Positions 9,031-51,778 of a stretch of 64,000 nucleotides of DNA are shown here, piece after piece. Both the position numbers and the translations under genes were made by a program. The notes under the pieces were generated by a model. The model worked only from the letters and a program-made list of their open reading frames with translations, had not been told where the DNA came from and made no database searches. The stretch is from an uncultured Candidatus Rokubacteria bacterium. GTDB taxonomy: Bacteria > Methylomirabilota > Methylomirabilia > Rokubacteriales > CSP1-6. The stretch lies in the NCBI GenBank assembly GCA_963789955.1, contig CAWBMV010000016.1, forward strand, positions 1-64,000, written 5' to 3'. Position 1 is the stretch's first letter, and each line of letters starts with the position of its first letter.

Positions 9031-9558
9031 CCGCATAGTGGACCGTGACTCGGCGATCCGCGATTACTAGGACGTTCGTGCGATGAACGGATGCCCTGCG
9101 AAAAGCGGTCAGCTCGATCGCGGGAGACGCTGACAAAGGCGTTGGGCCATGGGTTCACCCGTCCCGTGGGTCAGACAAGCTCAGATCTTCGGGGGCGTGG
9201 GCGGGCAACACCCGCCCACGGCATCCCCTCTTGTCTCTTGCGCAGAATCACCTGCGCGCCCAAGCTAGGCAGCCGGGCCTTGGTTCTGCTGAGTGCCTGT
9301 CGCGCCGCTTGGAACCGCTAGCTCGTTCCCGACGACGCCGTCTCCGAGCCCGGTGGCGTGGTGTCCATTTCCGATCCCCCGATCGCTCAGGAGTTCTACT
9401 CGCGGTACGCGGGGCGCCCTGCGTCGCCGCATCCCCCTTCTACTCCGCCGAGTCGTTGGCGTCAAGGCGCACAGAACGAGCGCAGAACAGGCCATTGGAC
9501 GCATTCCGGCCAGCTTCCCGGCGCCGGCGCGCGAGAGATGTCGGAGTCGTTGCCCCTG

Positions 9559-9955
9559 ACGTTCATGAACGAGGCCGGCGAGAAGTTTTGCGGGGGGTGT
9601 GGCAGATCGTTGACGGCAACAGCCAGGCCTGTTGAACCGCGGCTCACATTGCCCGAGGCCTACACGCCGAAGCACCTCGCGGCGAAGATTCTCACGTCCA
9701 AGGCCGCCCTCGAGGGCGAGCGCAAGCACGTCACCGTCCTCTTCGCCGATCTGAAGGGCTCGATGGAGCTGCTCGCCGACCGCGATCCCGAGGAGGCGCG
9801 GAAGATTCTCGATCCGGTCCTCGAACTGATGATGGAGGCCGTGCATCGCTACGAGGGGACGGTGAACCAGGTAATGGGCGACGGGATCATGGCACTCTTC
9901 GGCACTCCGCTCGCACACGAGGATCACGCGGTGCGGGCGTGCGACGCGGCGCTCC
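9559..9955 (+). pseudogene. N-terminal fragment of a zinc-ribbon class III adenylate/guanylate cyclase (AAA-TPR type)
   Basis: KFCGGCG, EGERKHVTVLFADLKGS, TVNQVMGDGIMALFG, HEDHAVRAC, then loss of similarity. Confidence 0.8.
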
Positions 9956-10055
9956 GCAAGCCACACGAAGAACAAGTAGACGCGAACGACAGCCCGCACT
10001 CACCGCGGAAGCGGCGTCCCCTCACGGTGCTCTGCGTGGCACCGCGGACAGACCA

Positions 10056-10285
10056 TCAACGCAGCTCGCGTATTTCCTTCTCCGCCTGCTCCAGCCAAAA
10101 CCGCATGTCCATGTCGCGGTACATCGTCGTCGCGCTGGTGAGGTGCTCCTGCGCCTGCTCGCGCTGGCCCGTGCGCCGGTAGAGCTTGCCGAGGCCGAGG
10201 TGGCAGTGGGCGACGAGCGGGCGCATGCCCAGTTCGTCGGCGAGCGCCAGGGCTTCGCGGTAGTAGCCTTCAGCGTCCTCGGCGC
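10056..10285 (-). pseudogene. C-terminal TPR remnant of the same cyclase family
   Basis: Manual translation: YYREALALADELGMRPLVAHCHLGLGKLYRRTGQREQAQEHL...MDMRFWLEQAEKE. Confidence 0.75.
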
Positions 10286-26875: not shown

Positions 26876-29283
26876 CAGCCGCTCCGCAGGGTGACGTGGA
26901 AAGTCTCGGTGATCCGCCGGACCACTCGCTCCTGGATCGCGTTCACTTCGGCGTCGGTCAAGGTCCGGTCCTCGGCCTGGAACAGCAGCCGCCACGCCAG
27001 GCTCGACCGGCCGTCCGGGAAGCGGAAGACGTCGAAGAGCACGAGCCGCCGCAGGAGAGGTCCGGCCTCCTCTCGAAGCGCCGACTCGATCTGAGCCGCG
27101 GTCAAGGTCTGATCGCTCCCGATGACGAACGCCAGATCGCGCTCGACCGCCGGGAACCGCGGCAGCGCCTGGTAGCGCAGCGGCGTCGAGGCCGCCGCTC
27201 CGACGGCGTCGAGCGAGACGACGGCCGCGAAGACCGGCGTCGGGATGCCGAAGCTCGCGCGCAACGCCGCCGCGACCTCGCCGAACTCGGCGACGATCGC
27301 CCCGCTCTCGGTCACGAGCGTCCCGTGGCAGTCGGGCTCGAAGCCGCTGAGCCCGCCGCCCTCGCCCGTGGTCGCGCGCACACCGAGCGCTTCGAGCGTG
27401 TGCTCGGCCAGCCCCTTGGCGTCGTAGACATCCGCCGGCTCGGCGGCTCCGTCCCACTCCGGCGCGCTCCGCGAGCCGGTCAGCGCGATCGCGACCCAGC
27501 GCGGCTCGCGTCGTCGCGGCGTCTCCGTTGCCCGTCTGGTACGTCTTGGTGATCTCGAAGACTCTCACGTCGGCCTGCTGGCGTCGCACGTTGGTGCCGA
27601 CCGCGCTCAGAACACCTTCGAGCGGATTCACGCGCAGCAATGACGCGTCCTGCGCCAGCGGATTCATCAGCTCGACGGGCTTCGGATCGACCGTGCGGCG
27701 GAGCAGCTCGGCCTTCGCCGGGTCGGTGAAGGCGTACGTCACCACCTCGGCGAGCCCCGCGCCCACCAGCGCCCCTCGAACGGTCTGGCTCTGACGCAGG
27801 GTGGCCGGATGGATGACGAGCGAGATCGCGCCGCCCGGCAACGTCGACGGGATCCGGTCGTAGCCCCAGACACGGATGATCTCCTCGACGAGATCGTCCT
27901 CCATCGCGACGTCGCGCCGGAAGCTCGGCACGCTCACCTCGAGATCGGCGCCGCGCGACTTCACCGGCAGCCCGAGGCCGGTCAGGAGCTTGCGGGCCTG
28001 CGCCGGAGTCGGGGCGATGCCGAGGACCCGTTTCACGCGCGACATCCGCAGGCGCACGTGCTGCGGCTTCCGCTTGCGTGGGTACGCATCGATCATGCCC
28101 CGCGCGATGCGTGCCGCCGGCGATCTCGGCGATGAGCGCCGCCGCCCGCGCGGAGGCGGTCACGAGGCCCTCGATGTCGGCGCCGCGCTCGAACCGGTAC
28201 GCGGCGTCGGTCCGCAGACCGAGCGCGCGCGAGGTGCGGCGGATCGACGCGGGCGCGAACCAGGCGCTCTCCAGCAGCACGCGCGTCGTGCCGGCGGTGA
28301 CCTCGGTGTTGGCGCCGCCCATCACGCCCGCGAGCCCGATCGCCCGCTGCGGGTCGGCGATGAGCAGCATCGACGCGTCGAGCGCGCGCTCCTGGCCGTC
28401 GAGGGTCGTGAAGCGCTCGCCGGCCCGCGCGCGGCGCACGACGATCGTCGAGTCGGCCACGCGTCGCGTAGTCGTATGCGTGCAGCGGCTGCCCGAGCTC
28501 CCACAGGACGTAGTTGGTCGCGTCGACGACGTTGCTGATGGGCCGAAGCCCGATGGCGCGCAGCCGCGTGCGCAGCCAGGCCGGCGACGGGCCGATGGTC
28601 ACGCCGCTGATCACGCGCGCCGTGAACCGGTGGCAGAGATCCGGCGCCTCGATGCGGACGCGCGCGAGGTTCTTGGCGCTCTCCCCGGACTCCTTCAGCG
28701 CGATCTGCGGCGGCCGCAGGCGCCCGCCGGTCAGCGCCGCGAGCTCGCGCGCGATGCCCAGCACCGAGAGACAGTCGGGCCGATTCGGGGTGATCTCGAC
28801 CTCGAGGACGTGATCGTCGAGCCCGAGCGCCGCGACGAGATCGGCCCCGGAACGAGCGCCGGCCACCTCGAGGATTCCCGCCTCGTGCTCCTCCCCGATC
28901 CCGAGCTCCTTCTCCGAGCACAGCATGCCCTGCGACTCGACGCCGTGGATCTTCGCGGACGCGATCCGGCGCCCGCCCGGCAGCACGGCGCCCGGCGGCG
29001 CGAAGGCGGCGCGCAGGCCCGCGCGCGCGTTCGGCGCGCCGCATACGACCGCATAGTGCTCGCGGCCGGCGCTGACCCGGCACAGGACGAGCGTGTGGCC
29101 GTGGCTCTGGCCGAGCTCGCGCTCGATGGCCTCGATCTCGCCGACGACCACGCCTTTGAGATCGGGCGCCAGCGGCGTCACGGACGCGACCTCGATGCCG
29201 GCGTTGACGAGCCGCTCGGCGGCCTGCGCGGCCGTCAGCCGCAGATCGACGAACTCGCGCACCCACCCGTACGGGATCTTCAT
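26875..29283 (-). CDS. pheT: Phenylalanine--tRNA ligase beta subunit (several indels)
   Basis: VVCGAPN, SQGMLCS, ITPNRPDCLS, GQPLHAYD, RFERG, RFPAVERDLA, DRTLTDAEV. Confidence 0.95.
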
Positions 29284-29287
29284 CGGC

Positions 29288-30314
<1,027 letters not shown>

Positions 30315-31446: not shown

Positions 31447-33321
31447 TTAGTTAGTGGTAGTGCGCGCTACAGGCCGTCGCGGGGCTGGGGCCCCGCCGGC
31501 CGAGGCGCGCCTATAAGTGGTCACGGGCCGGACGATCACGACGCGGCCCACGGCCAGGCTGGCGTCGCGCGAGCCGATCTCGCGGGTGAGGTCGGCGAGC
31601 ACGCGGTCGATGGGCACGGCGCCCAGATCGTCGCCGGAGCGGTGCCGGAGGCTCACGGTGCCGTTCTCGGCCTCCCGGGCGCCGACGACGAGCATGTACG
31701 GCACCTTGCGGACCTGCGCGTCGCGGATACGGTAGCCGAGCTTCTCGTTGCGGTCGTCGAGCTCGGCGCGGATGCGCGCGGCGCGCAGGCGGCCGTGGAC
31801 CGTGCGCGCGTAGTCGATGTGCTTCTCGCTGATCGGCAGTACGCGCGCCTGGACCGGGGCCAGCCAGGTCGGGAAGGCCCCGGCGTAGTGCTCGACGAGA
31901 ACGCCGACGAAGCGCTCGAACGAGCCGAAGATCGCCCGGTGGATCATGACCGGACGCTTGGGCTGCCCGTCACTGTCGATGTATTCGAGCCCGAAGCGAT
32001 CCGGCTGCTGGAAGTCGACCTGGATCGTCGCCACCTGCCAGCGCCGTCCGAGCGCGTCCTGGACGTCGACGTCGATCTTCGGGCCGTAGAACGTTCCGTC
32101 ACCCGGATTCAGCTCGAAGGCGAGGCCGTTCGCGCGCAGCGCGTCGTGCAGCGCGCCCTCGGCCGCCTGCCACTGCTCGTCCGAGCCCAGTGATTTCTCG
32201 GGGCGCGTCGACAGCTTGAAGAACGGCTCGAGCATGAAGGTCTTGTACCACTCGCGGACCAGCTCGAGCACCGCGGTGATCTCGTCCTGGATCTGATCGA
32301 GGCGGCAGTAGATGTGCGCGTCGTCCTGCGTGAACTGCCGCACCCGCATGAGGCCGGTCAAGGTGCCCGAGCGCTCGTTGCGGTGCAGCCGTCCCATGTC
32401 CGCGAAGCGGAGCGGCAGGTCGCGATACGAGCGCAGCGCGTGCCGATAGACCAGCGTCGACTCGGGGCAGTTCATCGGCTTGAGGCCGAAGAGCTGCTCC
32501 TCGGACTCCACCAGGAACATGTTCTCGCGGTAGTGATCCCAGTGACCCGATTCTTCCCAGAGCTTCTTGTTGACGAGGATCGGCGTCGAGATCTCCTGAT
32601 AGCCGCGCGCGTCGAGCACCTCGCGGACGAAGCGCTCGAGCTCGCGCACCATCACCCAGCCGTTCGGGAGCCAGAAGGGCGCGCCGGGCGAGACGTCGTG
32701 GAACGCGTACAGATCGAGCTCGCGTCCGAGCTTGCGATGGTCGCGCTTCTTCGCCTCCTCGAGGCGCCAGAGGTGCTTGTCGAGCTCCTCCTGCGTCAGC
32801 CACGCGGTGCCGTAGATGCGCTGGAGCATCGGGTTGCGCTCGTCGCCGCGCCAGTAGGCCCCCGAGGACGACAGGAGCTTGAAGTGCTTCACCTGCCCCG
32901 TCGACGGCACGTGCGGCCCGCGGCAGAGGTCGATGAAGTCGCCCTGACTGTAGAGCGACACGCGCGGGGCATCGATGCCCTCGAGGATCTCGACCTTGAA
33001 CGGCTCGTTCCGCTCGCGGAAGAAGCGAATGGCCTCCTCGCGTGGCATCTCCTGCCGCTGGAACGGGAGGTCGGCCTTCGCGATCTCCTTCATGACCTCT
33101 TCGATCTTCGCGAGGTCTTCCGGAGTGAACGGCTCCGATTTGGCGAAGTCGTAGTAGAAGCCGTCCTCGATCGACGGACCGATCGCGACGCGAACCGCGG
33201 GAAAGAGCCGCTTCACGGCTTGCGCCATGACGTGCGACGTGGAATGCCGCAGGGTCGCGAGCGGCGACGGATCGCAGTCGAAGTCGCCGGTCAGCTTGAG
33301 GTGACGATCTTCTTCAGACAG
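31447..33321 (-). CDS. thrS: Threonine--tRNA ligase (no TGS domain; CTG start as read; true stop possibly near 31535)
   Basis: LRHSTSHVMAQAV, DLCRGPH, KPMNCP, RVRQFTQDDAH, FYGPKID, HRAIFGSFERF. Confidence 0.96.
   Translation of the reverse strand: MSEEDRHLKLTGDFDCDPSPLATLRHSTSHVMAQAVKRLFPAVRVAIGPSIEDGFYYDFAKSEPFTPEDLAKIEEVMKEIAKADLPFQRQEMPREEAIRFFRERNEPFKVEILEGIDAPRVSLYSQGDFIDLCRGPHVPSTGQVKHFKLLSSSGAYWRGDERNPMLQRIYGTAWLTQEELDKHLWRLEEAKKRDHRKLGRELDLYAFHDVSPGAPFWLPNGWVMVRELERFVREVLDARGYQEISTPILVNKKLWEESGHWDHYRENMFLVESEEQLFGLKPMNCPESTLVYRHALRSYRDLPLRFADMGRLHRNERSGTLTGLMRVRQFTQDDAHIYCRLDQIQDEITAVLELVREWYKTFMLEPFFKLSTRPEKSLGSDEQWQAAEGALHDALRANGLAFELNPGDGTFYGPKIDVDVQDALGRRWQVATIQVDFQQPDRFGLEYIDSDGQPKRPVMIHRAIFGSFERFVGVLVEHYAGAFPTWLAPVQARVLPISEKHIDYARTVHGRLRAARIRAELDDRNEKLGYRIRDAQVRKVPYMLVVGAREAENGTVSLRHRSGDDLGAVPIDRVLADLTREIGSRDASLAVGRVVIVRPVTTYRRASAGGAPAPRRPVARTTTN
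31460..31510 (-). repeat. Hairpin repeat family B, copy in the infC leader
   Basis: 51 bp, 3 mismatches versus 33352-33402. Confidence 0.9.
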
Positions 33322-36800: not shown

Positions 36801-38198
36801 TCACAGGGCCGGACGACGATCTCTCCAGGGCGAAGCGGTTTCGAAAGCGGCCGACGCCGCCAGCACGGTGCCGTCGGCATGGCGACGCCCGACGATCTGC
36901 AGGCCGACCGGAAGGCCCTCGTCGGTCCATCCGGCCGGCACGCTCGCCGCGGGCTGGCCCGTCAGGTTGAACGGGTACGTGAACGGCATCCATCCGAGCA
37001 CCGAGACGTCCTGCCCGGCGATCTCGCGCGGCGGATGCGCGCCCGCCGCGAACGGCAAGGTCGCCACCGTCGGCATGAGCAGCACGTCGAAGCGCTCGAG
37101 GAACGTCTGGGCCTCGCGCCAGTATTCTTCGACGCGCGCGACGGCGCGCAGGTAGTCGCGGGTCGCCACGGCGCCACCGCGCCGGATGAATCGCACGAGC
37201 GAGGCATCCATGTGCGGCTCGGCATCCGGAAGGCGATCGGACCAGGCGGCGTAGAACTGCGCGGCGATGATCGTCGCGAAGATCTCCTCGGGATTCTCCC
37301 ACCCGGGATTGACGACCTCGACGTGACAGCCGAGCGTCTCGAACACGCCCGCCGCGTTCTCGCACGCCGCCAGCACCTTGGGGTCGACCGCCGCGTAGCC
37401 GAGATCCGGTGTCCACGCGACGTTGAGTCCCCTCACGTCGCCGTCGCACATCGTCAGAAATGAGCGGAGCTCGCGCGGCAGGGAGCTGCGGTCGCGGTCG
37501 TCGCCGCCGGCCACCACGTCGAGCACGGCCGCCGCGTCGCGCACGGTGCGGGTGATCGGGCCGACGTGATTGACGCGCTCGAAGCCGCCGAACAGCGCGC
37601 GGTCCGGCACGCGCCCGAAGGAGGGCTTGAAGCCGTAGAGCCCGCAGAACGCCGCCGGGATCCGGACCGAGCCGCCGCCGTCGGTCCCGAGCGCGATCGG
37701 GCCCACGCCGCTCGCCACCGCGGCGGCGGCGCCGCCGCTCGAGCCTCCGGGCGTGAGCGTCGTGTCCCAAGGATTGCGCGTGATGCCGAAGAGCGGGTTC
37801 TCGGTGAACGCCTTGTGGCCGAACTCCGACGTGTTGGTCTTCCCGAGCAGCACGGCGCCGGCGGCCTTGAGCCGGCCGAACGAGAGCGCGTCTTCCTCGG
37901 GGACGAAATCGGCGAAGAGCCGAGAGCCGCCGGTCGTCGTCAGCCCGCGCGTCGGCAGGACATCCTTGACCGAGAACGGCACGCCGTGGAGAGGACCGAG
38001 CGGCTCGCCTTTCATCACCGCGATCTCCGCCTCGCGGGCGGCGACGCGGGCGACGTCGGCGGTCACGAGACAGAACGCGTTGAGGGTCGGGTTGACCGCT
38101 TCGAGTCTGGCGAGAATCGCGTCGAGTACCTCGAGCGGCTTGACCTCTTTACGCCGGACGAGATCGGCGATCTCGAGCGCGGAGAGCCAAGTCTCCAT
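36801..38198 (-). CDS. Amidase signature family enzyme
   Basis: VKD, GKTN, GGSSGG, GTDGGGSVRIPA. Confidence 0.93.
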   Translation of the reverse strand: METWLSALEIADLVRRKEVKPLEVLDAILARLEAVNPTLNAFCLVTADVARVAAREAEIAVMKGEPLGPLHGVPFSVKDVLPTRGLTTTGGSRLFADFVPEEDALSFGRLKAAGAVLLGKTNTSEFGHKAFTENPLFGITRNPWDTTLTPGGSSGGAAAAVASGVGPIALGTDGGGSVRIPAAFCGLYGFKPSFGRVPDRALFGGFERVNHVGPITRTVRDAAAVLDVVAGGDDRDRSSLPRELRSFLTMCDGDVRGLNVAWTPDLGYAAVDPKVLAACENAAGVFETLGCHVEVVNPGWENPEEIFATIIAAQFYAAWSDRLPDAEPHMDASLVRFIRRGGAVATRDYLRAVARVEEYWREAQTFLERFDVLLMPTVATLPFAAGAHPPREIAGQDVSVLGWMPFTYPFNLTGQPAASVPAGWTDEGLPVGLQIVGRRHADGTVLAASAAFETASPWRDRRPAL

Positions 38199-38227
38199 TG
38201 ACGGGCCGCATTGTATCATTGCGCTTC

Positions 38228-39408
38228 GTGCAGATCGTGGATCGCCGGGGGACGCTCGTCACCGTCCTGCGCCCGACGGCCACCGGGTCGATCGAGAGCG
38301 CGTGGGTTCGCATTCCGGACGGCTCCTGGCTCGGCATCGAACCGCGCGCAACGCGCGACGCGCCGTGGGGCTGGTCCGACCGGCTCTGGCACGCCGCGGA
38401 GCCGCCCGCCAACGGCTGGCACGGAGCGCGGCTCACCCTCTTCGAGTCGCTCGACTGGGCGCGCATCGATCGCATTCCAGTCCTCGCGGAGCCCGCGCGA
38501 TTGCCGCCCGGCGGCGGGACCGCGGTGTTGAACTTCATCGCCGCGCGCGCGGCCGAGCAGGGCGCCGGCCCCCTCGCGTATCGCGGCCCCTATCCGACCG
38601 AGCAGCTCTTTCTGGCGCTCCTCGAGTCGTTCCGTTACGAGCCCCACGCGGCCGACCCGCTCGCGGACTTCATGGCCGGAGGCCTCACCTGGCGGCCGGC
38701 GCCCTCCGAGCATCTGTTCGTCGGCGACGACCTCTACGTGCAAGGTCGTGACCGGATCGAGAAGGTCGTGTGGCGCGGCATCACCTACTACCGGCCGGAG
38801 TGGCAGGACGTCGTGCGCCACACGCCGCGCCGGATCGTCGACGCGCCCGACGGGGTGCGGTGCGGGCTCTGGGCTCTCTCACAACGGCTCGAGGACGCGC
38901 TCCTGCTCCGCCCCGACGGTGATCTCGCGGCGATCCTCGCGGTCGAGCCGACACCCGCGGCGAGCCGGCCCCTCCCGGACCGCGTGTGGGCCGGCGTCGC
39001 CGCGGTCGTCGCCGCGCGCGGCGCCGCGCCGCTGGCGTCCTTCGTGGAATCGGTTGCCGGAGCGTTCTCGCTCGAGTGGGGCCCGGTCGCGCGGGACCTG
39101 GTCCAGATCGGTCGAGGCCGCGTGCGAATCTCCGAGCGGCTCCGCGAGGCGCTCGCGGCCGGGCTGGCGGCGGCGCCCGACGCCGGCGACCGCGCCGCGC
39201 TCGGGCTGGCCGTGATCGCGGAGATGGCCGCGCTCGTGGGCGACGCGCTCCGAGGGCGCGCCCAGGCCGAGATCCTCGCGCGCTCCGGCCCCGAGTCGGT
39301 CGCCGAGCTGGCCCGACCCCAGCGGCGCCCGGCGAGCGGGGCGGCGCCGAACGGGCTCGCGACATCACGGCGGGGGTCGAAGCGCTGCTGGCCGAGGCCG
39401 GCCGCTGA
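38228..39408 (+). CDS. Hypothetical protein (indel near 3' end)
   Basis: Long ORF with protein-like composition; no recognised motif. Confidence 0.6.
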
Positions 39409-39411
39409 GGG

Positions 39412-40633
39412 TCAGTGCGTGGCGCTGAAGATGATCCAGACGTTGAAGGCGATGAACGCGGCGACCGAGAGCGTCGAGAGCCCGACGTAGGCGATCCAGA
39501 GCAGCTCCTCCCGACCCTGCACCATCCGCCCGCGCGCCCGTCAACAGGCCCTTCACGTACGCGATCGCGTCGCTCTTGAGCGTGGGCACGCCCAGCACGT
39601 CGACGAGCACGTGATAGCCGTCCATCTCGATGAAGCAGAAGGGATAGAGCGCGACCACCAGCGCCTGCCACTGGATGATGCCGGACGCGGCGGCGAAGGC
39701 CTGCGTGAAGCTGCCGGTCGGGGCCTTGGCGGCGACGATGAACGCGACCGCGCCGAGGACCAGATGGACGAGCGCACCCGTCACGGCGGTCACCACGCGG
39801 GCGCGGCGGCTCGCCATGAAGATGTCGGTGACGTCGACGTAGAACGTCGGCACGAAGCCGTGCAGGAAGGTGAAGCCGAACTCGCGCACGCGACGCCGAT
39901 AGTGGATGCAGGCCAGCCCGTGCACGAACTGGTGCAGCGCCACGCTGGCGAAGAACAGGAGCTTGACCATCAGGATGCCGCGCAGGGCGTGGCCGCCGAA
40001 TCCCTCGAGCATGTCGTGCACGTCGCGGAAGAGCATCAGCGCGGCGGCGGCGCCCACGACGGCGAGCACGCCACACGCGATCGCGGCGATCGGCGTGAAG
40101 ACGAGGAACCCGCCGTATCGGTAGAGCGCCTGGAAGAACGGCTGGACGTTGTGGCTCGAGATCCGGATACGCTCGAGGCCGGTCAGCGCGAGCTCGAGCG
40201 CCTTCACGATCATGCGGCCGCGGTTGCGCGCCAGGGCCGCCCGCAGCCGCGACCGCGGCTCGAACGTCAGGAGCTGCGCCCGCTGGAGCTTGTGGAGCAA
40301 GCTCGGGATGATCTCGAAGTCGAACTCGCCGTACTTCAGCACGTAGGCGGTCGCGATCTCCTGCAACGAGGTGGCGCCGTCCATCTGATCCCACAGGAAG
40401 CCCTCCTGCGCGGAGAGCAGGAGGAAGCGGTCCGTGGTCTTGTTTTTCAGAATGAAGCCGGGCGCGACAGCCAGCCGCGAGCGCAGCTCGGAGATCTCGT
40501 ACGACTCCTGATCGATCCGGCGCGGGCGCGAGTTGAGGTAGCCGATGACGCTCGCGACCTGGCGGAGCTCGAAGTCCTCCTCGTCGTCGCGCCGGACGAG
40601 CAGCTCGAACTTCGCGGGCGCCGGCCGCTGCAT
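39412..40633 (-). CDS. PqqD/RRE-like domain fused to an M50-like membrane domain with a degenerate HQxxH motif
   Basis: FILKNKTTDRFLLLS...LWDQMDGATSLQEI...LLHKLQRAQLL (RRE-like); LHQFVH, PTFYVDVTD, YPFCFIEMDGY; indel near 39535. Confidence 0.75.
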
Positions 40634-41134
40634 CAGCGCGCCTCGATGTCGAGACCCGGTGGCCTCGAGGCCCCAGCGGGTCGCCTCGGCGACCTGCTGC
40701 GTCGAGCGCCGCAGCCGATCCATGAACACCGTGACCATCGCGTGGAAGAACGCGGCGGCGGCGTGAGGCGCGGTCTCGGTCATCGCCTGCAGGCTATCGC
40801 GTCCGAGGATGAGCAGCTCGACGTCCGTCTCGGCCTGGGCGGTGGCGGAGCGGGGCGAGCCGTCGAAGAGGCTCATCTCGCCGAAGAAGTCGAAGGGCTC
40901 GACGCGCACCAGCACCTGCTCGACCTTGCCGGTCACCGCCTTCGAGATGAGCATGGTCCCGCGCCGCACGATGAACATCTCGTCGCCGCGATCGTCTTCA
41001 CGAAAGAGAATCTGGCGCTTCCGTAGATCACGTTCGCGCAGCCGGTCCGCGACGACGGCGAGATCGGCATCGGAGAAGGATTCGAACACACGAACGTCGC
41101 GCAGGAACGCGAGGGTTTCGGCCGACGCCTGCAC
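40633..41134 (-). CDS. Stand-alone cyclic nucleotide-binding domain protein
   Basis: LFREDDRGDEMFIV..G, FFGEMSLFDGSPRSATAQA (GE...R cassette); TGATG overlap with the next gene if one base is removed. Confidence 0.85.
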
Positions 41135-41153
41135 GCGGGGAGTGGCGCGAGGC

Positions 41154-41372
41154 CTAGGTGGCCACGCGGCTGATGAGGCTACTGCGGAACGCGTGTCGCC
41201 GCTCGCTCGACGGCGTCTTCGCGAGCCGGATCAAGGCCTGCTGCACCGTCGCACGCTCGGCGTCGCTCAGCTCGTACTCGGCCAGGAGCGGCTCCGGTGT
41301 GCGCTGGAGCTCGGCGAGAAATTCCGGATCGATCATCACTCGCCCCACCAGCTCACGCAGTCCTTGCGCCAT
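41154..41372 (-). CDS. Small NHLP-clan-like protein (Os1348/Franean1_4349-like)
   Basis: LRELVGRVMIDPEFLAELQRTPEPLLAEYELSDAE resembles the nitrile-hydratase-like leader pattern (RA..DPEFR..L..DP...L..Y.L). Confidence 0.7.
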   Translation of the reverse strand: MAQGLRELVGRVMIDPEFLAELQRTPEPLLAEYELSDAERATVQQALIRLAKTPSSERRHAFRSSLISRVAT

Positions 41373-41539
41373 CGAGCGAATCATACCAATTTCCTCGACC
41401 GTTTGATAGGCTCCCACCATGATTCACGACTCGCGCGCGCCCGATACGAGCCGCGACGACTCGTCATCTCCGGAAACTTCGCGGTCGGTCCTGCCCACGT
41501 GGTCGTCGAGCCGGCGCGGCGTCGAGCGCGGGCGGCCGC

Positions 41540-47728: not shown

Positions 47729-49360
<1,632 letters not shown>

Positions 49361-49364
<4 letters not shown>

Positions 49365-49667
49365 GAGTGCTCGACGAGGTCGAGCCCCTCCAGAACCCGC
49401 GCGGTGTTCGACATGTCGCCGATGACACGGCGGGCCGGGAAGCGGGAGCTCCTTCACGCACGTCGGCGCCGCGATGATCTGCTCGGCGGACGCGCGCGCC
49501 GGTTGCTCGTAGAGGTTGACCACCTCGAGCTCGTACGCGCCGGCGAAATGCTCTTCGCAGATCGCCCGGATGTTCTCGACGGCCCGCGTCGAGCGCGCGG
49601 TCATGCCGGCGACGAACAGTCGCAGCACGTACGCTCGCTGCGAACCCTGCGGGCCGTGGGATTCCAA
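49361..49667 (-). CDS. kaiB: KaiB family protein (copy 2, indel)
   Basis: YVLRLFVAGMTARS..AVENIRAICEE...IIAAPT...P.RRVIGDMS. Confidence 0.88.
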
Positions 49668-49670
49668 CGC

Positions 49671-50002
49671 TCAGCGCGCCGGTCGGACATCCAGCCCGAC
49701 GAGGACACGGTCGGTATTCGAGAGATCTCCGATGATCTTGCGCACCGGCTCGGGCAGAAGCCGGACGAGCGTCGGCACCGCGAGGATCTGATCTCCCGCC
49801 GCCAGCTGCGGGTTCTGAATCAGGTCGATGACCTCGATCCGGTATCGGCCCTTGAGGTGCTCCTCGCAGATCCGCTTGAGATTGGCGAACGCCTTGACCG
49901 AGCGAGGCGTCTGCCCGGCGATGTACAGCCGCAAGATCTGCTCGATCGGACGGGCGCAGACGTCGGCGACGGTCCGCTCGGACGAATTTCCGTCATCTCC
50001 AT
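49671..50002 (-). CDS. kaiB: KaiB family protein (copy 1)
   Basis: [23 protein letters not shown]...[23 protein letters not shown]. Confidence 0.92.
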
Positions 50003-50079
50003 GACTTCACCGTATACTTACCGGTCCTCAGCTACGCCATCGTCGTCACGTTCGCGCCGCGTTCCCACACCGCGTTCGT

Positions 50080-51778
50080 CACTTTGGATCCGTTGTCGCT
50101 CATGTCGGCCGCCGGCTCTCGGCAATGTCCTGACGCTCGTCGCTCAAGCGCGTCGACCCGTGTTCATCTGCTCATCGATCCCGGTGGCCAGATCGGCCTG
50201 CTCCGCCTCGAACTTGGCCCGCATGGATGCCAGCTCCGCCTCGAACGCGGCTCGCAGCCGGGCGAGCGTCCGCTCTTTGCGCTCGATCTCCTGCTGCTGC
50301 GCGAGCTCGGCCGCTCGCTCCTGGGCTTCCTGACGTCAAGCGCGCGGAGCCCGTGAGCACGCCGCCGGCGCCGGCGTAGACGTCGACGAGCTCGATACCA
50401 TGGTCGGTCAGGAGAAACTCGCGGATCTGATTGGAGTGACCCATCCCGCGCGACTTGAGCACGTAGAGGCCGCGATTTCTCTCGCCGCTCGACTCGAGCG
50501 TGACCAGCAGGAGCCAGGTGTCGACGATCGACGAGATCTCCGCGTCCGTCTGCTCGAGCTCGGTCTTCCCGTGGGAGAGGCTGGTCATGAGCGCGGTGAT
50601 GCCCTGCGTCTTGAGGTGGTCCACGAGCCGGGTCAAGCGTCGACCGGACGTCTGCCGTCGCCGCCACCGACAGCAAGCTGCTCACCGGGTCGAGGATCAC
50701 CACATCCGGATGGAATCGCTCGATCGCCCGGTACATCTGCGACAGGTGCATCTCGAGCCCGTGCAGCGCGGGACGAGACGCGTGGTACTCCAGAAGACCA
50801 CGGTCGATCCACGGCTGCAGGTCGAGGCCGATCGACCGCATGTTACGGACCACCTGCTGCGGCGATTCCTCGAACAAGAACACCAGGCAGCGTTCTCCGC
50901 GCCGGCAGGCCGCGTCGACGAAGTGGGCGCCCAGGCTGCTCTTGCCGGCGCCGGCGGTGCCGGACACGAGGATCGTGCTGCCCCGGAAGTAGCCTCGGCC
51001 TCCGAGCATCGTGTCGAGCCGGGCGACACCGCTCGAGACGCGCTCGGACGACGCGGCATGACTGAGACCCATCGAGGTGATCGGCAGCACCGCCATCCCG
51101 TCCTCGTCGATGAGGAACGGGTACTCGTTGGTCCCGTGGGACGAGCCGCGGTACTTCACGATGCGAAGGCGCCGCGTGGAGACCTGCTCGGTCACCCGGT
51201 GGTCGAGCAGGATCACCGCGTCCGACACGTATTCTTCGAGGCCCTGTCGCGTGAGGGCGCCGTCGCCTCGCTCGCCGGTGATCACCGCCGTCACGCCCTT
51301 GTCCTTGAGCCAGCGGAACAGGCGGCGCAGCTCGGCCCGTAGAATCGACTCGTTGGCGAGGCCCGAGAAGAGCGATTCGACCGTGTCGAGCACGACGCGG
51401 CGGGCTCCGATGGAGTCGATGGCGAAGCCGAGCCGGACGAAGAGTCCCTCGAGATCGTAGTCACCGGTCTCCTCGATCTCGCTGCGCTCGACCCTGACGT
51501 GGTCGAGCACGATCTTCTTCTTCTCGATCAGCGCCGGAAGGTCGTAGCCGAGCGAGGCGACGTTCTTGGCGAGCTCGTCGTTGCTCTCCTCGAAGCTCAT
51601 GAACACGCCGGGCTCGTCGAACCTGGTCGCGCCGTTGACGAGGAAGCTCATGGCGAAGAGGGTTTTGCCGCAGCCGGCCGAGCCGCAGATCAGGGTGGGC
51701 CGGCCGGTCGGCAGGCCTCCTCCCGTGATCTGATCGAAGCCTTCGATACCGGTGGGCGATTTGGGTAGACGCGGTCAC
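50080..51778 (-). CDS. kaiC: KaiC double-ATPase (indels; 3' end approximate)
   Basis: PTGIEGFD, GSAGCGKT, EEYVSD, KYRGSSH; second P-loop GTAGAGKS, ISSIVDTW, KSRGMGHSNQIREF; C-terminal coiled coil. Confidence 0.93.

Follow-up and report, generated by a model that had tools for sequence, protein, structure and literature searches.

A conserved three-gene locus of Candidatus Rokubacteria encoding a predicted cyclic-nucleotide sensor and a Glu-less RRE-M50 protein, a possible tail-docking module

The three-gene locus

The DNA analyzed here is a stretch of 64,000 nucleotides (positions 1 to 64,000 of contig CAWBMV010000016.1, assembly GCA_963789955.1) from an uncultured Candidatus Rokubacteria bacterium, referred to below as the window. 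The names of homologs agree with an origin in this group. It contains three closely packed genes which encode, in reading order, a small helical protein, a stand-alone cyclic nucleotide monophosphate (cNMP)-binding protein and a protein in which a RiPP recognition element (RRE; RiPPs are peptides made by the ribosome and modified after translation) is fused to a membrane domain resembling M50 site-2 proteases (Table 1). An original prediction made from the window alone had described these as three packed, co-directional genes, and both independent contigs and the gene order of relatives bear this out, all three being on the minus strand.

As assembled, the cNMP and RRE-M50 genes of the window form a single open frame of 589 aa and the end of the RRE-M50 gene is cut. 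Alignment with close relatives revealed one surplus base near position 40655 and one near 39530. In independent contigs the base at 40654-40658 was missing in four of four runs and that at 39529-39530 in three of four, and the cNMP and RRE-M50 genes were separate in 203 of the 204 loci holding both, the sole fused copy being that of the window. Since the independent contigs lack the extra bases and no other locus is fused, we attribute the fusion to assembly error and rule out a natural cNMP-RRE-M50 fusion in the host genome.

An extended -10-like element precedes the small gene. The pattern TAnnnT was found 4-9 bases before the start of this gene in 24 of 62 loci (four of the 62 lying outside the HQxxH clade described below) and at 10 bases in nine more, compared with 2 of 1177 control windows. 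This enrichment supports the 72-aa start and a single operon, and the element of the window is likely to be the operon promoter, giving a leaderless or near-leaderless transcript. A contig from an RNA library (run X16) covers 39955-41315; as it came without a silent-stretch control we do not claim transcription from it.

Table 1. Features of the locus, in window coordinates.
Feature	Position	Strand	Remark
Small helical protein, 72 aa	41154..41372	-	Os1348/NHLP-clan-like body, conserved C-terminal R-x-A-T tail
Stand-alone cNMP-binding protein, ~166 aa without the extra base near 40655	40633..41134	-	CRP-like sensor domain, no helix-turn-helix
RRE-M50 protein, 406 aa without the extra base near 39530	39412..40633	-	Start codon overlaps cNMP stop (TGATG)
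Extra assembly base fusing the cNMP and RRE-M50 frames (error)	40654..40658		Contigs and alignment of relatives
Extra assembly base (error) which frameshifts the last transmembrane helix	39529..39530		Contigs and alignment of relatives
Extended -10-like element TGnTATGAT	41380..41388	-	7 bases before the ATG of the small gene
RRE/PqqD-type winged-helix domain, residues ~35-126	40256..40531	-	Structure match
HQFVH; His234 and His238 (metal ligands) kept, catalytic Glu replaced by Gln235	39920..39934	-	Aligns to HELGH of M. jannaschii S2P
His290 in G-x-x-x-H	39764..39766	-	Second-site residue fixed in HQxxH clade
Asp338 (E-M-D-G), predicted third metal ligand	39620..39622	-	Alignment; loop of low confidence
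Phosphate-binding cassette G-E-M-S-L-F-D-G-S-P-R	40850..40882	-	G, E and R conserved in Glu-less loci

The RRE-M50 protein

Pfam scores for the RRE-M50 protein lay below the cut-offs (Peptidase_M50, 16.4; PqqD, 12.4), and Foldseek matches to its model all had E-values above 0.001. The AlphaFold model of the 406-aa protein (predicted local distance difference test, pLDDT, 70.6; predicted template modelling score, pTM, 0.56) contains a three-strand, three-helix PqqD fold at residues 35-126, which matched RRE structures (TbiB1, Z 9.8, root-mean-square deviation, rmsd, 2.8; PqqD, Z 8.4). This is followed by a multi-pass membrane domain with an HxxxH helix, a re-entrant loop and a distal DG aspartate, of which residues 164-348 matched SpoIVFB (Z 8.0, rmsd 4.2), matches to site-2 proteases overall covering residues ~155-348. 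A predicted beta-hairpin extension carrying the motif LELLxR (residues 8-27) precedes the RRE and marks the subfamily.

The catalytic Glu of HExxH, which an active M50 peptidase would carry, is absent. The original prediction had read HQFVH and YPFCFIEMDG in an RRE-fused M50-like protein; both motifs are intact, and HQxxH occurs in 119 of 120 homologs, which rules out that the Gln is a base error. Asp338 lies in a loop (residues 331-360) with pLDDT below 50. Across all clades there is little or no variation in the re-entrant loop (FYxDVTD), in both His residues or in the Asp.

A search with the RRE-M50 profile returned 8019 clusters at 50% identity. Among the best 150 of these, 99 carried HExxH, 19 HQxxH and 4 HVxxH, while 25 did not cover the motif. 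Fused cNMP domains were present in 33 of the 99 distant HExxH representatives (and FHA domains in some), indicating that RRE-M50 and cNMP domains are functionally tied across the family.

The subfamily with the LELLxR extension was traced into 160 loci, which fall into three clades. In the Rokubacteria the motif is HQxxH (HQ) and the small protein ends in R-V/W/L-A/S-T. The sister clade carries HVxxH or HTxxH (HV/HT) and has no small gene; its cNMP protein is extended and ends in G-R-K/R-S-T. Members are Binatia and records labelled Deltaproteobacteria, Syntrophobacter or Eisenbacteria, and the tailed cNMP form occurs in 27 of the 101 genomes searched from the Binatia order concerned and in 4 of 151 from the class. 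The third clade belongs to the Myxococcota, including cultured Polyangium, keeps HExxH with a small protein ending in R-K/R-A-A-x, and was found in 5 of 301 genomes. The codons at the Glu site (CAG or CAA for Gln, GTN for Val) are each one base from Glu and an HExxH protein, P0128, sits in an unresolved fork with both Glu-less clades, which together suggest, but do not prove, that the Glu was lost separately in the two. Within an HExxH branch of the subfamily, the protein P0144 has QQxxY with both His residues lost, a further and unrelated inactivation.

Position 290 is occupied by His in 131/131 HQ loci and by Glu or Asp in 60/60 HV/HT loci; the 17 trio loci with HExxH have Gly or Asn there. 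On this basis the RRE-M50 protein could be a re-tooled enzyme, in which His290 (Glu or Asp in the sister clade) would serve as a new base or belong to an altered metal site, and which would cut or modify the tail under cNMP control. The fixation of position 290 is the main support for such an enzyme, and it would be in keeping with the retention of all three metal ligands and with fixed polar residues (Q321, Q323, K224) in the membrane helices. However, the slot is tolerant, being filled by His (1), Glu (4) or Asp (9) in 14 of the 99 HExxH representatives as well, and residue 290 may instead be a fourth metal ligand which blocks catalysis. In the tailed-cNMP clade such an enzyme would moreover have its own sensor as the target of cutting or modification. 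We consider a re-tooled enzyme somewhat unlikely, though the foremost alternative to the docking reading given below.

The cNMP protein

The second protein scored 72.5 bits with the Pfam cNMP_binding model, over the cut-off. Its model (pLDDT 94) is a CRP-like sensor with a beta-barrel, and ends in a long C-helix (residues 123-158). Unlike CRP/FNR regulators it has no DNA-binding helix-turn-helix, and the whole protein is only ~166 aa. The closest structure was 3gyd, followed by N-terminal domains of CRP. The C-terminus is a conserved WGLEATG motif.

The G, E and R of the phosphate-binding cassette are kept in 58/58 HQ and 37/37 HV/HT loci, that is in 95/95 Glu-less loci, while the Arg is replaced by Ala in 13/13 HExxH loci. 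The initial description of a stand-alone domain with an intact cassette and no helix-turn-helix was therefore correct. Among 31 matches to this cNMP subfamily there was no clear longer fused form that would reveal an output (weak evidence). One match, P0417, is 484 aa long and 58% identical over 70% of the query.

The original prediction had also hinted that the host makes cNMPs. Its genome contains 9 cNMP-binding domains and 27 matches to class III cyclase domains, 26 of them over the cut-off. In the window a class III cyclase domain at 9322-10182 (plus strand) is truncated, the match at 9724-9957 covering profile positions 7-84 of 183.

The small protein and its tail

The 72-aa protein is helical, ends in SRVAT and has no hydrophobic segment, Gly-Gly or Cys; the original prediction had noted the SRVAT end and the absence of a Cys-rich or Gly-Gly-delimited core. 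Among 73 small proteins Gly-Gly occurs in one and Cys in two. It scored 31.5 bits with NF038399 (Os1348 NHLP clan; cut-off 40) and a profile of the small proteins matched the Os1348 crystal chain 6lk7 (E 3e-4). By these matches it is probably a distant Os1348/NHLP-clan member, predicted to be soluble. Further NF038399 matches in the host genome proved to be LigA-like or unrelated. The last residues are among the best-conserved positions (in HQxxH loci, R69 58/58, T72 98%, A71 90%), and no hypervariable or Cys/Ser/Thr-rich core was found in the 73 sequences, in which the C-terminus is conserved. Tails of relatives end in Ser, Ala or Phe.

To follow the tail we surveyed 209 loci, of which 6 without one of the larger genes and 39 with less than 400 bases of flank were set aside. 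The remaining 164, which are related and in part duplicates of the same genomes, split into 123 with a small gene and an untailed sensor and 41 in which the sensor is tailed and the small gene absent; no locus had both, and no locus had neither. In genome G040 the gene order is cNMP-small-M50, the small protein ends in DRRAT and the two copies carry HVLIH and HTLVH. Its RRE-M50 proteins were sister to the tailed-cNMP clade in a quick tree (59 rows, including 13 of 58 HQ rows, with support by the Shimodaira-Hasegawa-like approximate likelihood ratio test, SH-aLRT, only). From such an order, in-frame loss of the body of the small protein would give the two-gene form.

No small protein of the Os1348-like family was found elsewhere in six genomes of the tailed clade, a few weak NF038399 matches below the cut-off being left unassigned. 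Candidates in G211, G212, G213, G525, G567 and G655 were rejected as nitrile-hydratase-alpha-like or LigA-like by eye. Profile comparison of the small protein with the cNMP extension revealed no homology beyond the motif; the case for a shared tail is therefore made by the similarity of the motifs, the order of the genes and the fact that the two tailed forms exclude each other. Because the tailed clade retains the RRE despite having no small gene, and carries the tail on its cNMP protein, the NHLP-like body would thus be dispensable and selection would act to keep the tail. The same arrangement weakens the earlier suggestion that the RRE binds an NHLP-like leader.

The tail might alternatively be a degradation tag, shielded by the pseudo-protease until cNMP triggers release and turnover of the protein that bears it. 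It is short, always at the extreme C-terminus and portable between proteins, and in myxobacteria it reads R-K-A-A-x; presumably it resembles the basic/Ala C-terminal motifs read by ClpX. The forms R-V/W-A-T and R-K-S-T deviate from that motif, no protease or adaptor gene is linked to the trio, and loss of the tail-bearing proteins would have no obvious regulatory target. We regard a degradation tag as highly improbable.

Distribution and gene neighbourhood

When 200 genomes of the host phylum were searched by profile, an RRE-M50 match was obtained in 114 of the 126 genomes of the host family (a few being fragments, and G152 having only a distant paralogue), in 8/16 genomes of family f4 and in 1/1 of family f5. 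In the remaining families (56 genomes) there were just two weak partial matches. All three genes were present in 30 of the 30 loci first retrieved. The RRE-M50 gene is near-core and mostly single-copy in the host family, and the conservation of the trio and of HQxxH, which the original prediction had proposed as its own check, was thus found in both respects. Two copies of the module occur in G040 (L040 and L041) and in G060 (L042 and L043). Some Rokubacteria (L008-L028 and others, with weak matches of 725-900 aa) encode, in a long open frame, an additional RRE-M50 paralogue that is only distantly related (27-30% identity).

The neighbours of the trio are thrS, TonB, DAHP synthase, VTT/DedA, an amidase, an orphan and an ABC-type binding protein. 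As predicted, no modifying enzyme lies beside it. YcaO was not found in the host genome (87% complete), and neither YcaO, LanM nor an NHLM ABC transporter gene is adjacent to the trio, the search for LanM being confined to this neighbourhood.

The orphan (window 38198-39277, plus strand, ~360 aa) is convergent with the trio, has no Pfam or NCBIfam match, and its end in the window seems frameshifted with respect to close relatives. We considered it as a fourth component and ruled it out. Of 61 genomes of the order 53 have it, among them f4 genomes with no match to the trio, and in G046 and G048 it lies far from the trio.

Further genes of the window, at 29280-30314, 31447-31700, 48654-49667 and 50164-51651, look frameshifted, which would fit single-base assembly errors in the host genome; we take these to be a pheS-like gene, the end of thrS, a PAS histidine kinase gene and a kaiC-like gene, named partly by eye. 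At 49671-51651 (minus strand) lie what we take, from the translations, to be a KaiC-like and a KaiB-like gene, after which come genes for a PAS kinase and a response regulator.

The myxobacterial HExxH cluster

In Polyangium fumosum (L056, 3192-9768) the HExxH form lies in a cluster of up to six genes, and the same type of cluster was found at L051, L053, L057-L061, L095, L135, L138 and L264-L267. It encodes a membrane class III cyclase (97-102 bits), a DDxxD protein which is divergent and isoprenyl-synthase-like (weak match to FPP synthase, E 0.023), a squalene-cyclase/prenyltransferase-like protein with squalene-cyclase-type repeats (weak matches), a small protein, the HExxH RRE-M50 protein and an Arg-less cNMP protein. 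The small proteins are of the Os1348 type, end in RKAA-x and pass the NF038399 cut-off (63.8, 56.5 and 48.9 bits).

In the 12 HExxH loci of at least 10 kb, profiles detected the cyclase in 11, the DDxxD gene in 11 and the cyclase-repeat gene in 12, several of these loci having been used to build the profiles. Of four extra HExxH loci from outside the profiles, all four had the cyclase, three the DDxxD gene, three the cyclase-repeat gene and two the cNMP gene. In 54 HQ and 21 HV/HT loci of at least 10 kb there were no terpene-like genes, and a cyclase domain was present in 3. The DDxxD profile was negative in all of 101 genomes of the order of the host, while 5/5 myxobacterial control genomes were positive; it gave one marginal match in 61 genomes of the Binatia order. 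Neither of the terpene-like profiles had a match in the host genome.

A link to cNMPs is therefore visible in the gene neighbourhood of the active relatives, where the class III cyclase adjoins the HExxH loci. The HExxH cluster is likely to be the parent form, the Rokubacteria version having shed the modifying enzymes. The two divergent terpene-enzyme-like genes of Polyangium possibly represent a new peptide-lipidation chemistry. In addition, an Rce1-like type II CAAX protease gene (L056 9779-11527, minus strand; Pfam 60 bits) is convergent with the cluster and conserved in Polyangium loci only.

Relation to known systems

The trio resembles the daptide peptidase MpaP/DapP (NF041824; 10.1101/2023.03.08.531785) in having an RRE N-terminal to a site-2 protease domain and a small open reading frame ending in Thr. 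It differs in that the RRE-M50 protein scores 95.6 against an NF041824 cut-off of 300 and has lost the Glu. The ELExMEAP leader motif and aliphatic core are missing; there is a cNMP sensor instead, and the gene is near-core. No dehydrogenase/oxidoreductase, aminotransferase or methyltransferase lies beside the trio, the search for MpaB, C, D and M having been limited to its neighbours.

The small protein probably shares with Os1348/NHLP proteins (NF038399; PMC7726476, PMC2887384) a helical N-terminal body related to the N-terminus of nitrile hydratase alpha. In contrast to NHLP precursors (PMC2887384), it has no Gly-Gly or hypervariable core and its C-terminus is conserved, the reverse pattern. 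Os1348 adjoins an acetyltransferase, a soluble HEXXH protein and a SagB-type dehydrogenase (PMC7726476), all of which are absent at the trio. As the defining tests of both were negative, the trio is neither a daptide nor an NHLP RiPP cluster.

A minimal RiPP or pheromone locus was also considered, in which the small protein would be a precursor processed by enzymes encoded elsewhere (daptide-type work on Thr, or prenylation) and the RRE-M50 protein would chaperone or export it. The RRE-M50 architecture and terminal Thr recall the daptides (10.1101/2023.03.08.531785), there are weak matches to NF041824 and NF058609, and the myxobacterial small proteins adjoin isoprenyl-synthase-like and terpene-cyclase-like genes as well as passing NF038399. 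However, no DDxxD gene was found in the 101 genomes of the host order, and no terpene-like match or YcaO in the host genome; the small protein is a single precursor without a hypervariable or Cys/Ser/Thr-rich core, and one clade manages without the small gene. The idea of a daptide-like locus with enzymes in trans, raised in the original prediction, is also opposed by the NF041824 score far under its cut-off and by tails which end in Ser, Ala or Phe. We consider a RiPP locus very improbable.

In SpoIVFB the E44Q substitution abolishes proteolysis while substrate is still bound by beta-sheet augmentation at the re-entrant loop (PMC11486902). The RRE-M50 protein shares with SpoIVFB the site-2 protease fold, re-entrant loop and His/His/Asp site, and both are coupled to a soluble domain of nucleotide-binding type, CBS in SpoIVFB and cNMP here (PMC11486902). 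It differs from SpoIVFB E44Q in that the substitution is natural and fixed, the cNMP regulator is a separate protein, the accessory domain for ligand binding is an RRE and no sigma-factor substrate is encoded. Uncharacterized proteins in which RRE-M50 is joined to tandem cNMP and FHA domains have the same core, but keep HExxH in a single chain. By analogy, we infer that the trio would act as a regulated site-2 protease arrested with its ligand bound would, while its architecture is that of a daptide leader peptidase. Inactive intramembrane protease homologues which serve as binding or scaffold proteins include the iRhoms and plant EGY3; these are eukaryotic, have no RRE or cNMP partner and bind other ligands.

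No description of the trio was found in the literature searched, which did not extend to subscription journals, and supplements may list the proteins. Passages of PMC7470986 and PMC12710340 contained no mention of M50 or cyclic nucleotides.

Proposed function

The trio is real and conserved, and we infer its function from comparative evidence. The reading we tentatively favour, at a little under an even chance, is that the three proteins derive from RiPP-type machinery and form a complex which docks the tail under cNMP control and does not cut it. The products of the conserved operon would assemble into a docking switch controlled by cyclic nucleotide. The Glu-less M50 domain, which keeps His234, His238, Asp338 and the re-entrant loop, would hold the basic C-terminal tail without cutting it, the ligand being bound as an added beta-strand as in SpoIVFB E44Q. 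The element common to the clades is the tail itself (R-x-A-T, R-K-S-T or R-K-A-A-x), carried either by the small protein or by the cNMP protein. Where there is a small protein, its helical body may be an adaptor which brings the tail to the cNMP protein. The RRE-M50 protein would recognize the tail, or perhaps the WGLEATG helix end of the sensor, and cAMP or cGMP may shift the long C-helix of the sensor and so make or break the contact. The tail-bearing protein would in this way be held at, or freed from, the membrane.

We favour this docking switch because the module is near-core, mostly single-copy and in housekeeping synteny, not a sporadic biosynthetic cluster; because the cassette Arg is intact throughout the Glu-less loci and the host has numerous cyclase domains; because the tail is exclusive to one protein or the other and the order in G040 is intermediate; and because HQxxH is fixed, with Val or Thr in the sister clade, and E44Q SpoIVFB still binds. 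None of the trio proteins contains a DNA-binding or other enzyme domain. The earlier proposal that RiPP recognition parts were repurposed for cyclic-nucleotide signalling thus gains comparative support, from the near-core distribution, the fixed Glu loss, the retained Arg and the cyclase beside the HExxH relatives; the part which had the RRE read a leader did not fare as well.

Several observations weigh against the docking switch. The small protein has no hydrophobic segment, unlike typical ligands of site-2 proteases, and the ionizable residue fixed at position 290 in both Glu-less clades could be a replacement base. Winged-helix domains unrelated to RiPPs match residues 35-126 equally well (Z 9.0-9.6). 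In the HExxH clade the sensor Arg is lost although a cyclase is next door, which does not fit a simple cAMP relay. The 41 tailed loci probably go back to a single evolutionary transfer of the tail and are not independent cases, and the analysis turned up no output component for the trio.

A broader scenario would join the clades. The myxobacterial six-gene cluster would be a self-contained peptide-lipidation and cyclic-nucleotide circuit, in which terpene-type enzymes modify the tail, the HExxH RRE-M50 protein cuts it and the membrane cyclase reports. Rokubacteria and Binatia would have kept only the regulatory arm, each disabling the protease independently, with an Arg-intact sensor and a portable four-residue C-terminal tail as ligand. 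A RiPP leader peptidase would thereby have turned into a receptor gated by cNMP, and bacteria would have their own version of the iRhom idea, assembled from the machinery of natural-product synthesis. Taken as a whole we think this scenario unlikely.

Implications

All parts of the trio are known folds, and its novelty would lie in the system. If the docking switch is correct, the trio would be a module for cyclic-nucleotide signalling of which the literature searched describes no counterpart, near-core in an abundant uncultured soil lineage, and would provide a natural Glu-less site-2 protease for substrate-capture studies. An RRE beside a peptidase and a small open reading frame would then be no sure sign of a natural-product cluster, a point of relevance where genomes are mined with RREs as a guide. 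Cultured Polyangium strains, which carry the HExxH version together with the cyclase and terpene-like genes, would offer a testable entry to the system.

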